Assembly: GCA_964016885.1 (NCBI GenBank)
Contig: OZ024750.1
Coordinates: forward strand, 14,136,001 to 14,200,000
DNA length: 64,000 bases
Direction of reading: 5' to 3'
Origin: Eledone cirrhosa
Taxonomy: Eukaryota
This document shows, one piece after another, positions 23,999 through 29,689 of this stretch (within the stretch, counting starts at the first letter, position 1; each line of letters begins with the position of its first letter). Made by a program: the position numbers and the translations under genes. The notes under the pieces were generated by a model. The model was not told the DNA's origin. It was given only the letters and a program-made list of their open reading frames with translations, and made no database searches.

Positions 23999-25054
23999 CT
24001 GAAAGCAAGATCAAAAGAGAAACAAACTTGAACGTATTCGCATTCTTTAACCCTTTAGCATTTAAATCGGCCATGTCCGGACAGAATTCTCTCACCTCTT
24101 TCTGTTCAAACTGACTGTAACCGGCCGCTTATACTGATGTTAAGGTATTGTTCTCAAAATGAATAATATCAAAATTTCATAGATTCGATATAATTGTTTC
24201 TACTTTTGGCACAAGGCCAGCAATTATCCCAGTACATTACTGGTACTTTATTTTATCGACCCCGTAAGGATGAAAGGCAAAGTTAACCTCGGCGGGATTT
24301 GAACTCAGAATGGCAAGGGCCGTAACTCTATACGTCAAAGCATGGCGTCCGACCCTCTACCGATACTGCCAATCCACCAATGTGAGATAATTGTGTAAGG
24401 ACAGACTTTACAATGAAAATATAACAGTATATATATACAGAGTGAGAGAGACACACATACACACACACACATATATATATATATATATATATATATATAT
24501 GTATATATATATATATATATATATATATATATATATATATATATATATATATATATATATATATATATATATATATATATATATATATATATATATATAT
24601 ATATATATGAAATACGTGAAGTCGTATATCTGGCGACACACTGTACGTATGAAATTAAAGTGCAAGTGATTGACCATTCCATAGACACGTGTATCCATAT
24701 CGTAATTCTCGGGGAGAATAGTGTGATATAGTGTGATAGTGTGTAACAAAGCTGATCCCTTAAATTACAGGTACAACCCATTGCCAGTTGATTTGACTGG
24801 AGCAATGTGATATATAGTGTCTTTCATGCTGAAGGGCGTAACGCACCACCTGGTCCGGAAATCGAACCCCCAACCTTACGATCGTGAACCCAGCACCCTA
24901 CCCACTCAAGTCAAGCATCTTCATTTTATATAACCAATCCTGTTTACCATCAACTGTGTGTCGTCCTTGAGTAAGTCGTTATTTATTTGACTACAAACAG
25001 CTACCCATCCCATCTCACTTAACTGCATTTTAGTAGACATTGTTGCATGCTTAT

Positions 25055-25267
25055 ATAGAAATAGCCTTCACCGTATTTTTGACTAAAGGAATTTTAGCCT
25101 GATAATGAGGTTTAGAACCCTCAGAAAAATGGAAAAAGATGAGTATTGACGTACATAGGAGTCGAACCCACATCTTTACTCATCTTTTTCCATTTATCTG
25201 AGGGTTCTAAACCCCATTATCAGGCTAAAATTCCTTTAGTCAAAAATACGGTGAAAGCTATTTCTAT
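25055..25267. repeat. Fold-back inverted repeat, ~90-bp arms
   Basis: 25055-25145 is the reverse complement of 25177-25267; followed by a short tail and long (TA)n. Confidence 0.9.
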
Positions 25268-25734
25268 TTTCTAATTTCAAACCTGCTCACTGTTTCAAAA
25301 CATACTTACTATATATATATATATATATATATATATATATATATATATAATATATATATATATATATATATATATATATATATATATATATATATATATA
25401 TATATATATATATATATATATATATATATATATATATATACATCACGGACGCTCTATTTCAAAATTATTTTTGAAAAGCATTAGAAATGCGCAACCGGTA
25501 AAACTTAAAACCAAAACTGAATACTAACCAATACTATTACTAATTTTCACTTATTCCTAATTAAACTATTTTTCACTGTGAACATTTTGTCAGCATTTTC
25601 TTTTCCGTTTACCAATATATATATATATATATATATATATATATTACCATATATATATTACCAGTCCGAGCTGAAGATCCGCATAAGGTGAAACATTTAT
25701 TCTCGGTATGGTGAACTAACTGTTGTGTTACTAC

Positions 25735-25950
25735 TTCTATATATATGACGTATTATCTTCGTTTTTTCCGTTCTTTGCCAGGGAACGTTTCCACGAACCT
25801 AAGTATCGTCTTCCTATCTTCCTTCGGTTGCAACGTTTTTCGAAATATTTACTTCTGCGTTCACTGATTGATTTTTTTAGTTTCAGAAGATCCCGCTAAG
25901 GGTGAAAGCAGTGATTCTTTGCTTAAACTTTAATCTGTTATTTTAATACA
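25735..25950 (+). mobile_element. (TA)n-tailed module with variant hammerhead-like fold; second copy at 49745-49892 + 50221-50260
   Basis: agttt-CAGAAGA-tccc..gggt-GAAA-gca..tgc-UUA-aact in both copies. Confidence 0.55.
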
Positions 25951-26811
25951 TATATATATATATATTGGGTTTATATTTTAATATAACCTAATGTTTGTTG
26001 AGTGAGATGGTTACCAGTCAGAGTTTAGCTTTAAACTATCTCTGTTATTGTATTAAATATATATATATATATATATATATATATATATATATATATATAT
26101 ATATATATATATATATACACACAACTAGAACTGTTTCATTCGTAAGAAATCTCCAGAAAAGACTTTCCTAGTGATTTCTTATGAATGAAACAGTTCTAGT
26201 CCTGTAGAAGTCAGTTCTATAATCAAATGAATATTCCTATACTCTATTAACGTATTGAGTACCTTTTTTCGCCTCCCGATTTACATCGGGATCCTACATT
26301 ATATGTATATATATATATATATGTGTGTGTGTGTGTGCGTTGGCTGAGTGGTAAGACAATTGGATTCGCAATCGTGAAGTTGTGAGTTCGATTCTTAGAC
26401 CGGGCGATGCGTTATGTCCTTGAGCATGACACTTTATTTCACGTTGCTCCTTCTACCTGGAGTTGCGACCGATAGATAGTATTAGCAATTGGAAAGACCA
26501 GCGAAAACATTGTTTCCTCGGTCCGATTTAATGAAAGTCGATCAACTGTCGATATATATATATATATACTCTTTTACCTGTGCCCAGCCATCCGGCTGAG
26601 GCCATATATCTATCTATATATATATCTATCTATATATATATATATATATATATATATACCGTCTATGGAAGGAACCATCTTATCTACCATCAAACACACA
26701 CATATATATATATATATATATATGTAGAAGTTATATTTAATTTGTTGGGATACAACAAGCAAATATTTTTATAACTGATATAAAGCACTCAACAAATTAT
26801 TGGAGTAAAAT

Positions 26812-27169
26812 TACGATATATTAACAAATGGAAACTATATTTATAAAACCATATTTATTTCATTATACATATTTCAAGGACACCAAGTCAAATTATGGTG
26901 CGCTTTCATCAGATAAAATATAATATAGATCAGTTTTATAAATAAATATTGACATACCCTTAAAGAATGCGACCATTTCTGTTGGAAGCTCCCGGATAGT
27001 CGGAGAGCTTCCAACAGAAATGGCGCATTCTTTAAGGGTATGTCAATATTTATTTATAAAACTGATCTATATTATATTTTATCTGATGAAAGCGCACCAT
27101 AATTTGACTTGGTGTCCTTGAAATATGTATAATGAAATAAATATAGTTTCCATTTGTTAATATATCGTA
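26812..27169. repeat. Fold-back inverted repeat, ~180-bp arms, ~4-nt loop
   Basis: Arms pair almost perfectly around 26997-27000; right arm has CUGAUGA (27083)..GAAA (27120). Confidence 0.9.
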
Positions 27170-27293
27170 TACATATATATATATATATATATATATGTAT
27201 ATATATATATATATATATATATATGTATATGTATATATATATATATATATATATATATATATATATATATATATATATATATATATATATATA

Positions 27294-27690
27294 TAATATA
27301 TAAGATCAAAAGATGGTTAAAAGAGTTCCATGTATTTTATTATGCGCATTTCAAAAACAAATATCATCATGCAATAACATTTGTGTTTTCATCAGATAAA
27401 ATAGGAGGACATGATATGAAGGTTAAAAAACACTTGTGGATAGTGCAGTTTTAAATCAACATATGTTTTAACCTTCATATCATGTCCTCCTATTTTATCT
27501 GATGAAAACACTAATGTTATTGCATGATGATATTTGTTTTTGAAATGCGCATAATAAAATACATGGAACTCTTTTAACCATCTTTTGATCTTATATATTA
27601 TGTATACTCCAGTCCTACAAATTGTAGAGTGCTTCTTATCCGATATCTGCATTGCTTTATTGTACTACAATAAAACTCACCTCCTACATA
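27294..27690 (+). mobile_element. (TA)n-flanked Penelope-like/retrozyme-like module with inverted 5' duplication; copies at 28020-28285(-) and 63243-63500(-)
   Basis: Arms 27294-27428 / 27466-27600; hammerhead motif inside; ends ..aaaactcacctcctacata(ta)n. Confidence 0.75.
27491..27561 (+). ncRNA. Type I hammerhead ribozyme motif
   Basis: Stem I tattttat/ataaaata, CUGAUGA 27499-27505, long stem II, GAAA 27542-27545, palindromic stem III tgcgca, UA cleavage predicted after 27553. Confidence 0.75.
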
Positions 27691-27871
27691 TATATATATA
27701 TATATATATATATATTTATTCAGGTTTGAGGTTCACCACTGTATAGAGCTGGTCTATTCCGTATGGTCAATCGTAATGCAATAATATAGAGAGTACTCAA
27801 CGTAAAGCAGTTCAACCGTCTTTGTTTTTGTAGTTGGTGGTGCTATTACGGAGTTAAATATTATATTTCGA

Positions 27872-27929
27872 ATACCTGATGATATCACCGGATTCATACG
27901 GAACCCGGTCATTGAAATGATCATAGTAT
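27872..27929 (+). ncRNA. Type I hammerhead ribozyme motif (different family)
   Basis: atac-CUGAUGA(27876)-stem II accgg..ccggt-GAAA(27914)-tgatca palindrome-UA-gtat. Confidence 0.72.
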
Positions 27930-29689
27930 AATAAACCTTTCAAGGATTTACACCAGTCCAGCCTCCTGTCATTTCATTATAATATATTATATATATATAT
28001 ATATATATATATATACATGTATATGTATGAGGTGAGTTTTATTGTAGTACAATAAAGCAATGCAGATATCGGATAAGAAGCACTCTACAGTTTGTAGGAC
28101 TGGAGTATACATAATATAAGATCAAAAGATGGTTAAAGGAGTTCCATGTATTTTATTATGCGCATTTCAAAAACAAACATCATCATGCAATAATATTTGT
28201 GTTTTCATCAGATAAAACAGGAGAACATGATGATGTTTGTTTTTGAAATGCGCATAATAAAATACATGGAACTCCTTTAACCATCTTTTGATCTTATATT
28301 ATATATGTATATATATATATATATATATATATATATATATATATATATATATATAAGCAAATGAATGAGTGAATGAAAGAGTAAGCCGTTAAAACATATC
28401 TTTATATAGCTCTCTCTCTCTCTCTCTCTCTCTCTCTATATATATATATATATATATATATATATATATATATATATATATATATATATATATATACTCA
28501 CACAACCGTTTCCAGTGTTTATACGTACATACTGTAGCTAATCCAGCCTACATGTCTAGACCCGCCCTTCTAACTATATTTTTCAGTCGCTGACTGCATC
28601 GACATAATCACTTTTCTAGTTCATCTCTTCTTTTCTTTTCTTTCTTTACTCTATTCCTTGCTATGTACATACAATATAATTGATGACGCCTATAATTCCT
28701 AAAACTCCCCCTTCCTCATTAAACGTCTGTGCATGCTAATCTGGACGTGTGAACCACTAATAGTAACAAACAAGATGTATACTTGTTGTGTTTACTTTGT
28801 CACAGTTCTTTCTTTCACACACCAAAGTGAGTCGACCAGCCTGTGTAGCCCCGTCCACTTTATTGTAGGCTGGGATACGCTGTTTAATTAAGCCACGCCT
28901 TGCCCAGTATATGGGAGAAGATAACTAACAGGAAATGTACACAAAGGTAATGTATATTGCTCTATTGTTAATATTATAGTGGGCGGGGATTTCAGTTCAA
29001 CAGATACGCCTCTAATCCTCTACTGCTCCATTACATCTCACAGAACACGCAACTAATTCTTGCTAACTTAGATTATATCTACTTCCCTAGTGCACAGTAA
29101 ATCTATACTCCAGATTCATTTATTCGTAACAATACAGTATACAGTCATTCTATAGAACAATATATTTCTAGCTTTACTATAGCTTGCTTTATATGGCGTG
29201 TCTTCGGCATTTTTAACCTGGTGAAGCCCATCCCTTCTCTGGGTCTGAACACAGTCGATTTCTTCCAGAGATGTAGAGAGAGAGAGAGAGAGAGAGAGAG
29301 AGAGAGAGAAAAAGAGGAAATGAGAAAGAGATGTGGAGGAAGACTCGTCCCAGTACTGGATTGGTACGTTTTTTTTATCGACTTCGTCGAAAAGATGAAA
29401 GGCAAAGTTGACCTCCACCGACAGAGTTCGAGTCCAGAGATCCGGAACCAATATACCGCAACGCATTCTATCGGACGTTCTAGCGACTCTGGCAATTCAC
29501 CACTTTAATAAATATGATGTACACACACACACACGCACACACACACACACACACACACACACACACACACACACACACACACACACACACACACACACAC
29601 ACACACTCACACACACACACACACACACACACACACACACACACACACTCACACACACACACACACACACACACACGCACACACATAGG

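Follow-up and report, generated by a model that had tools for sequence, protein, structure and literature searches.

The 64,000 nucleotides (nt) of Eledone cirrhosa analyzed here (GenBank assembly GCA_964016885.1, contig OZ024750.1, positions 14,136,001 to 14,200,000 of the forward strand; hereafter the window) are AT-rich and dense in microsatellites, and between window positions 25050 and 28335 they contain a chain of short modules separated by (TA)n arrays. These 3286 nt hold 13 merged TA arrays, the window maximum, compared with a median of 4 per equal stretch, which bears out the initial annotation of a (TA)n hotspot. The cluster falls within an intron of a minus-strand protease gene (Table 1). 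A minus-strand open reading frame (ORF) bears a chitin-binding domain, and its one database relative, an Octopus sinensis elastase-1-like protein, could be mapped to the window as six exons at 67-91% identity, with a seventh, upstream, CBM14-like exon at 33%. Counted from the first detectable coding exon the intron is the fourth, as had been annotated, with more upstream exons possible.

The region was divided into 14 inter-repeat segments, two of them just 35 nt long. Each module had been described as bounded by TA runs, which is not confirmed: the left end of the module at 25055 is merely a TATATA hexamer, and a piece of a short interspersed element (SINE) at 26338 follows (TG)n. The cluster is a real feature of a known kind built from new families, ordinary octopus transposon debris, and its modules are very probably, for the most part, 5'-truncated 3' ends (pseudo-long terminal repeat, or pseudo-LTR, fragments) of Penelope-like retroelements.

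Table 1. Modules of the (TA)n cluster, their host intron, and related copies elsewhere in the window
Feature	Position	Strand	Description
Copy outside cluster	4043-4246	+	Fold-back, 80-nt tail, hairpin 4175, (TA)n on both sides
Host intron	23999-30097	-	CBM14 + trypsin-like protease gene; GT-AG sites read directly
M1	25055-25309	+	Fold-back (25055-25152 against 25170-25267); one arm continues as a 42-nt tail into (TA)n; neither hammerhead nor tail hairpin
(TA)n array	25310-25440		About 65 units
M2	25441-25614	+	Tail-less 3' fragment, no hammerhead
M3	25658-25737	+	Lone Hydra-type hammerhead, core 25671, runs into (TA)n
M4	25747-25950	+	M3 relative; full three-stem fold with U4A core (25884); second, interrupted copy 49730-50278
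M5	25966-26056	+	3' end like M4 (z 3.3), no core; probably a decayed relative
M6	26124-26304	+	Fold-back 26124-26200 with degenerate hammerhead (4-bp stem III), then tail, bulged hairpin 26241; related tail 50415-50523
M7a	26338-26450	+	5' part of SINE derived from transfer RNA (tRNA); at least 5 more copies in window; not a hammerhead module
M7b	26451-26551	+	GAA + 9-nt near-palindrome, CUGA box lost (by eye); missed by hammerhead scans; possible decayed hammerhead
Two 35-nt scraps	26569-26603, 26659-26693		Between TA runs
A	26724-27169	-	Head-to-head fold-back; minus-strand arm tailed (hammerhead 26912, hairpin 26806, tail reaching 26724), plus-strand arm tail-less (hammerhead 27083)
(TA)n array	27173-27295		Common to tail-less ends of A and B
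B	27296-27687	+	Fold-back; tailed arm + (hammerhead 27499, hairpin 27606); tail-less arm - (hammerhead 27395), 37 extra upstream bases; 10-bp junction palindrome 27458
C, minus arm	27716-27865	-	Tail, long-loop bulged hairpin 27854, only about 12 nt upstream of hairpin
C, plus arm	27866-27975	+	Hammerhead 27876, 50-nt spacer, tail-less end in (TA)n; 6-bp junction palindrome 27867
B2	28028-28300	-	Second family-B copy; minus-strand arm tailed (hammerhead 28211, hairpin 28106); inverted arm short (28226-28300), begins inside stem II
C relative outside cluster	57481-57727	-	Fold-back with long-loop hairpin 57606
B3	63245-63500	-	Third family-B copy, outside cluster; no fold-back; tail into (AT)n; stem III substitution in hammerhead

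Hammerhead folds and related copies

Hammerhead cores of the form CUGANGA..GAAA had been noted at 25671, 27083, 27499, and 27876, with a variant at 25884, and all are present. Three more lie on the minus strand (26912, 27395, and 28211); of these, two mirror a core in the opposite arm of A or B. Six cores, three on the plus strand (27083, 27499, and 27876) and the three on the minus strand, form complete type-I folds with an 8-nt palindromic stem III, and these six represent just four insertions and three sequence types. When the TA-stripped region was subjected to 1000 dinucleotide shuffles, complete folds averaged 0.001 per shuffle (1 of the 1000 had any) and bare cores averaged 0.29, compared with 7 bare cores in the real sequence, placing hammerhead density far above the shuffled background. 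Covariation among only five aligned related copies points the same way: pairing holds in 93% of 90 cells, and both sides have changed in 6 of 18 pairs, in all three helices, a result reached in 0 of 500 shuffles.

Not every ribozyme is intact. At 25671 the core and stems I and II are preserved and stem III is mismatched, while the hammerhead at 25884 folds fully, yet both copies of M4 carry U4A, a core change damaging to hammerheads. In A, B, and C, stem II is long and its pair 4 is a C-pyrimidine mismatch. Cofolding two copies of the B arm gave a double hammerhead with an 8-bp stem III formed in trans; cofolding two copies of the C arm did not. The hammerheads of A, B, and C are predicted to be dimer-dependent. 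A hammerhead trace occurs in four of the five fold-backs, the one at 26124 being degenerate and the one at 25055 having none. A covariance model built from five hammerheads returned 8 significant matches among the 20 listed; each was a training copy or the fold-back mirror of one, and none was new. The A/B ribozyme pattern had no match in bacterial and archaeal genomes.

The modules had been called unrelated, a description that did not survive 420 pair-strand alignment tests. B (27296) and B2 (28030) belong to one family (z 69), A is a diverged relative of that family from the ribozyme through the last base (z 11), and M3 (25660) and M4 (25747) are related (z 7). On the scale of the window several modules are also not single-copy, as M2, M4, M6, and B recur at 19258-19512, 49730-50278, 50415-50523, and 63232-63500. 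The second M2 copy, on the minus strand, carries a tail (about 35 nt) together with an inverted 5' arm of 20 nt. All four tailed A/B copies stop at the same base beside (AT)n, and 10 of 11 element ends outside the region, located by homology, fold-back, or ribozyme scan, adjoin TA runs (background, 1.3%). The C minus-arm tail is related to the copy at 57617 (z 5.2; 1 of 1000 shuffles) alone; its alignments with the tails of A, B, M6, the M6 relative at 50415, and 4043 are not significant. Alignments made with MAFFT, both of the tails and of the M3-M7b group, failed to preserve the structure and were excluded from pair counting.

Two side observations concern these copies. The second M4 copy carries a 131-nt two-unit tandem (49902-50219) inserted into stem III. 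The loop of M1 (25153-25175) resembles a tRNA/SINE T-arm, antisense to M1 and in sense with its tail-less arm (z 4.2, weak for 420 tests); from this similarity, M1 is possibly a SINE-derived RNA perhaps moved by the same machinery.

Inverted copies and a bulged 3' hairpin

All five fold-backs reported in the region are real: 25055-25267 (98-nt arms, 94%), 26124-26200, 26812-27169 (126 nt, 99%), 27288-27606 (141 nt, 99%), and 28107-28306 (81 nt, 99%). Across the window, nine inversions (A, B, B2, C, M1, M6, 4043, 19473, and 57617) are all head-to-head, and all nine bear a tail on one side only. Tails measure 42 nt in M1, about 35 nt in the M2 copy, and 80-140 nt in families with the hairpin described below. 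Tail-less ends also occur without any fold-back, in M2, M3, and M4. Arms differ by 0-1 positions in A, B, and B2, by 6/98 in M1, and by 3/58 in 4043, with a 14-nt indel in one arm of A; the B2 arms are identical to each other (0/74 differences) and distinct from B. The tail of B (27601-27687, plus strand) has a frame of 29 open codons beginning at an ATG; B2 shares it, whereas B3 and A do not (by eye). This is probably chance, though Penelope-like tails can overlap the start of an ORF.

The element ends share a layout of type-I hammerhead, a 36-57 nt spacer ending TA-rich, a bulged hairpin, a further 41-79 nt, and (TA)n. The hairpin has the form RCUC-stem-2 nt-GAGY in nine copies, each 41-79 nt before the (TA)n end. 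Copies in the window read ACUC, a 3-5 bp stem-loop, a 2-nt 3' bulge, and GAGU, and they open the tails of families that are otherwise hard to align. A strict motif had 7 matches against 0.155 expected, all of them 41-66 nt before (TA)n, a position occupied by 10% of background, and two further copies (27854 and 57606) have long loops. Upper-stem cells, tallied from motif matches, were paired in 27 of 27 cases with 2, 3, and 6 pair types. A generalized pattern was rejected as a count-based marker, being too common; only nearness to (TA)n is informative.

By eye, the hairpin is present in three of six new Hydra-clade consensus 3' ends in the available supplement of PMC8557442: Hydra-2_Amil and Hydra-2_Ajap, where the outer pair is G-C, and Hydra-1_Crog. 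A TA-rich stretch precedes it in Hydra-2_Ajap and Hydra-1_Crog. Hydra-1_Obim and Hydra-1_Ajap end in ATAT 30-40 nt after the ribozyme, as M3 and M4 do, and Hydra-1_Amil, the sixth, is equivocal. The available text and supplement of PMC8557442 gave 0 matches for hairpin or stem-loop, and among papers listed by literature searches confined to openly accessible sources, no title or abstract opening mentions this hairpin or twin priming for Penelope-like elements. The bulged hairpin is apparently undescribed so far.

Inversion ends track this hairpin, with the short arm stopping 0-10 nt before it in six of seven hairpin-family inversions, M6 being the exception. Junctions lie at palindromes of 10 bp in B, 19473, and 57617, 6 bp in C, and 4 bp in B2; none was found in A, M1, M6, or 4043. 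The junction palindrome of 57617 is shaped like the stem III palindromes of A, B, and C, a form that suggests its arms joined inside the ribozyme. Module C (27716-27975) is a nearly non-overlapping inversion, its arms sharing about 12 nt, and its cleavage-to-end spacing of 50 equals that of family B (50-52). Comparison with B3 shows that the 37-nt loop of B is native upstream sequence of the tail-less arm.

Origin of the modules and of the inversions

Type-I hammerheads with palindromic stem III, a Penelope-like hallmark, are found in A, B, B2, and C, are damaged in M3, M4, and M6, and are absent in M1 and M2; two others, a head-to-head inverted 5'-truncated copy, often joined at a palindrome, and an optional 3' tail at one end only, are both present. 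The class further has a single ORF with a telomerase-related reverse transcriptase and a GIY-YIG endonuclease, around which pseudo-LTRs lie as direct partial tandems; the window contains no full-length copy. An inverted 5'-truncated copy and a 30-40 bp tail at one end are already described for the class (PMC8557442; here and below, published work is cited from the available portions of the sources), and the fold-backs of the initial annotation are these inverted copies. Within the class, members of the Hydra clade are almost all inserted in (TA)n, carry canonical hammerheads, and include one from Octopus bimaculoides (PMC8557442). The clade and its Hydra-1_Obim resemble the modules in (TA)n insertion, a hammerhead near the 3' end, and an inverted 5'-truncated copy (Penelope-13_HM). 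Most listed Hydra ribozymes share a CUGA(U/A)GAU...UGAA frame with M3 and C, M4 being a variant; by eye, this type (U flanking stem II, 9-10 nt stem III) supplies the frame of M3, M4, and C, the stem III of M6 is like some of those listed, and A and B differ. Judged from these sequence features, the families probably belong to the Hydra clade. That clade is defined by RWK and DKT motifs, a CxCX5C linker, and a GIY-YIG domain without CCHH (PMC8557442), and the modules are noncoding 3' stubs only, none matching Hydra-1_Obim; as no ORF is present, both the Penelope-like and the clade assignment are indirect.

Other published elements share parts of this anatomy. Minimal dimeric hammerheads of Penelope-like elements (PMC4209133) are likewise type I with palindromic helix III and are mostly single motifs of truncated copies, with some opposite-strand pairs 100-700 bp apart, but A, B, C, M3, and M4 lack their G10.1-C11.1 pair and 5' bulge and have A-U or U-U. 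The classical minimal Penelope-type form does occur at 7690-8059 (plus strand), where each of two tandem units of about 170 nt contains one (cores 7766 and 7944) and ends in (TA)n. Naiad elements (PMC8557442) prefer (TA)n in octopods, have inverted copies and a 30-40 nt tail, and lack canonical hammerheads, which would fit M1 and M2, but these have no by-eye match to the listed octopus Naiad 3' ends.

Several results weigh against the assignment. Six-frame translation upstream of the ribozymes and a motif scan detected no Penelope-like protein remnant, the 4 loose motif matches being noise, and no Penelope-like reverse transcriptase (RT) or GIY-YIG coding sequence adjoins any module or was detected in the window. 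Scans of M1 and M2 found no hammerhead, and these two carry no hairpin either. Exact motif searches of the available PMC8557442 supplement, in which the 21 Repbase Hydra sequences are not included, revealed no corresponding element. None of the listed Hydra ribozymes has the perfect 8-nt stem III palindrome of A, B, and C, whose long stem II with the mismatch at pair 4 also sets them apart. Tails of 80-140 nt exceed the published 30-40 nt, a range given as typical, tailed Hydra consensuses also being longer (PMC8557442). Single-strand folding z-scores of hammerhead pieces are weak (+0.6 to -2.4). Rfam returned no hammerhead among 1 match and 59 matches, which comprise one tRNA-like SINE head and otherwise microRNA-type hairpin noise; because of this, and because 9 of 12 bare cores elsewhere in the window lack stems or homology, the bare motif alone is weak evidence. 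As for the tail hairpin, its motif was derived from the same copies in which it was counted, a loosened version had 15 matches against 7.25 expected (10 near TA, 9 of them distinct, and 5 far), and in Hydra-1_Crog the hairpin contains one mismatch and is bulged differently.

The initial annotation inferred several ribozyme-carrying retroelement families tied to (TA)n. The link stands for remnants, several of them multi-copy, but not as separate unrelated families: the cluster is mostly several (TA)n-targeting families of one superfamily, plus a tRNA-SINE fragment and unassigned pieces, namely M1, M2, M7b, and the two 35-nt scraps; the predicted hammerheads would act as passengers there. Non-LTR retrozymes were rejected because they require tandem hammerhead units, the modules being single or inverted, and Tc1/mariner-type miniature inverted-repeat transposable elements (MITEs) because they require fixed symmetric terminal inverted repeats, in place of which one-sided tails, variable junctions, and an uninverted copy were found.

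How such inverted copies arise is the harder question, and we lean, with something short of even confidence, toward double priming at two start sites flanking the hairpin. An RT/GIY-YIG protein encoded elsewhere would copy the stubs in trans, its endonuclease cutting (TA)n, which is the same on both strands, and the protein would bind the RNA at the hairpin. Reverse transcription would then start at either of two sites, which correspond to the observed end positions: just 5' of the hairpin, producing a tail-less end, or at the far 3' end, producing a tailed one. Both DNA ends would prime, one per site, and the two complementary DNAs (cDNAs) would extend toward each other, terminate early, and be joined head-to-head through a short palindrome or microhomology. 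The outcome would be the geometry found here, a fold-back with a one-sided tail. Each insertion would split one TA array into two targets, so that clusters would feed themselves; insertion next to existing copies has been noted (PMC6765202).

Double priming has parallels. In vitro, the Poseidon element PAc of Anolis has both strands of its target cut and extended, and two start sites set the tail; the enzyme is a predicted dimer, and ribozyme cleavage is not needed (PMC11167929). Its hammerhead upstream of two RT start sites, the tail between them, and the AT-rich target all resemble the modules, but its tail is 30-40 nt within the ORF start, and in vitro the two strands did not differ in their use of the start sites. 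Twin priming of L1, in which two primers on one RNA leave adjacent inverted segments, is comparable to module C, but the second L1 site is ad hoc, while here it would be fixed beside the hairpin, and the arms usually overlap. A more tentative extension of the model is that the Hydra-clade hairpin, from cnidarians to crustaceans, echinoderms, and octopods, is an RT binding site that fixes two start sites, with a dimeric enzyme priming both (TA)n ends, one per site, to leave a one-tailed inverted copy.

The strongest rival, which we consider possible but less probable than double priming, is snap-back, in which one cDNA self-primes at a palindrome and an endonuclease cuts the TA-rich site before the hairpin. 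Self-priming was proposed for Adineta vaga Penelope (PMC3846280), where head-to-head inverted pseudo-LTRs, junction palindromes, a tail on one inverted pseudo-LTR, and solo pseudo-LTRs in trans recall the modules, but target-site duplications are visible; tail resolution by the endonuclease appears in PMC8557442. Snap-back would account for the perfect 10-bp palindromes at three junctions and for the variants private to the arms of one insertion, as in B2, but one RNA copied twice likewise gives shared variants. A single self-folding cDNA cannot yield module C or the B spacer, so snap-back needs a later deletion of the palindrome center in both, in C by chance ending about 12 nt from the hairpin, although a 4-nt direct microhomology could explain the B spacer. 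Tail-less ends without a fold-back, in M2, M3, and M4 and in the Hydra-1_Obim consensus, suit a real start site better. Some observations count against double priming: snap-back more readily explains the short arm of M6, which stops about 40 nt away from the hairpin, and the 19473 arm, a stub of 20 nt; in B2 the tail-bearing arm is the longer one; and the C plus arm is only marginally colinear with its relative (17 of 500 shuffles were as good, and local alignment was not significant). Both priming routes may operate.

We consider it improbable that the inversions arose by DNA rearrangement after insertion rather than by reverse transcription. Long TA arrays are break-prone, and TA-rich stretches, at which a fragile (TA)n could switch back by microhomology, terminate the short arms of A, B, B2, and C. 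In opposition, all nine inversions are confined within element boundaries, the 4043 arm has just 3 nt of TA homology yet the same end offset, and the same anatomy is in print across Penelope-like clades.

Comparably improbable, and marginally less credible than rearrangement, is that the modules are 3' untranslated regions of long interspersed element (LINE) or SINE families, with (TA)n made by slippage as a product rather than a target, or retrozymes independent of autonomous elements. A conserved 3' hairpin before a microsatellite serves RNA recognition by some LINE RTs, one fold-back center reads as a short ORF end, the tandem hammerhead pair at 7690-8059 recalls retrozymes, and stuttered TTACCA-(TA)n units would suit slippage. 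These units occur three times over at 25609-25664, between M2 and M3, possibly through slippage during priming; they are the sole hint on whether (TA)n is extended, as had been suggested. Element-driven elongation and ordinary slippage are indistinguishable in the window data. Against this reading, (TA)n flanks inversions on both sides, the Hydra consensuses matched by the hairpin and ribozyme frame encode RT and GIY-YIG (PMC8557442), and retrozymes are by definition tandem arrays (PMC7229834; bioRxiv 10.64898/2026.07.22.740005), unlike the modules.

That the modules are TA-targeting MITEs, DNA transposons with incidental hammerheads, is very unlikely, as short noncoding inverted repeats with TA flanks would fit but one-sided tails, differing B/B2 junctions, the non-inverted B3, and ribozyme covariation would not. 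An assembly or sequencing artifact forming fold-backs at TA runs is less likely still: the near-perfect arms of A, B, and B2 beside long TA arrays could raise that suspicion, but the arm differences in M1 and 4043, the indel in A, and arm ends that track RNA structure speak against it.

Neighboring elements, host transcript, and outlook

Elsewhere in the window, an apparently intact LINE (12054-17850, minus strand), which we take to be L1/Tx1-type, has stop-to-stop frames of 678 and 1156 amino acids (aa) with RT, apurinic/apyrimidinic (AP) endonuclease, and zinc finger, and lies between GATA arrays; LINE 3' fragments at 17983, 18214-18341, 22836-23165, 23278-23346, and 62356-62707 adjoin GATA-type repeats. 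The contrast of this LINE in GATA arrays with stubs in (TA)n agrees with the earlier proposal that microsatellites are partitioned among element families, but the idea is not new, (TA)n having been assigned to Hydra and many Naiads and (CA)n and (C)n to Chlamys (PMC8557442). A 293-nt fold-back at 46867-47159 has TTAA at both ends, like a piggyBac-type MITE; a long one (63623-64000), truncated where the window ends, lies close to the 5' end of B3. A 313-aa frame with a PHD finger (55914-56855, minus strand) resembles the C-terminal portion of ORF2 of a LINE. Also present, at 58673-62010, 20009-22481, 34021-35375, and 48467-48651, are satellites (48, 36, and 134 nt) and a tract of telomere-like CTAACC.

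Cleavage of the host transcript is not expected, because the three hammerheads on the pre-mRNA strand sit inside fold-back duplexes in minimum-energy folds and the free ones (25671, 25884, and 27876) are antisense to the host gene. Near-perfect hairpins of 126 bp (26846-27149) and 141 bp (27288-27606) would form in the host pre-mRNA. The host belongs to an animal group known for RNA editing, and long perfect pre-mRNA hairpins may be ADAR or Dicer substrates, making these fold-backs possible candidates for editing or small-RNA production.

Octopus vulgaris has 31 recently active Penelope-like families (PMC13282606). How the class produces its inverted copies and one-sided tails is described as an open question in PMC8557442, and the later steps are called unvalidated in PMC11167929. 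Penelope-like elements are the closest retroelement relatives of telomerase, and a conserved hairpin with two flanking end positions is a defined RNA element to mutate, just as module C exemplifies a junction type that can be counted genome-wide. Together, the hairpin and hammerhead can be used to sort short repeats lacking an ORF that are otherwise annotated as unknown, as SINEs, or as MITEs, and the hairpin and C-type junction provide a modest, testable lead on mechanism.

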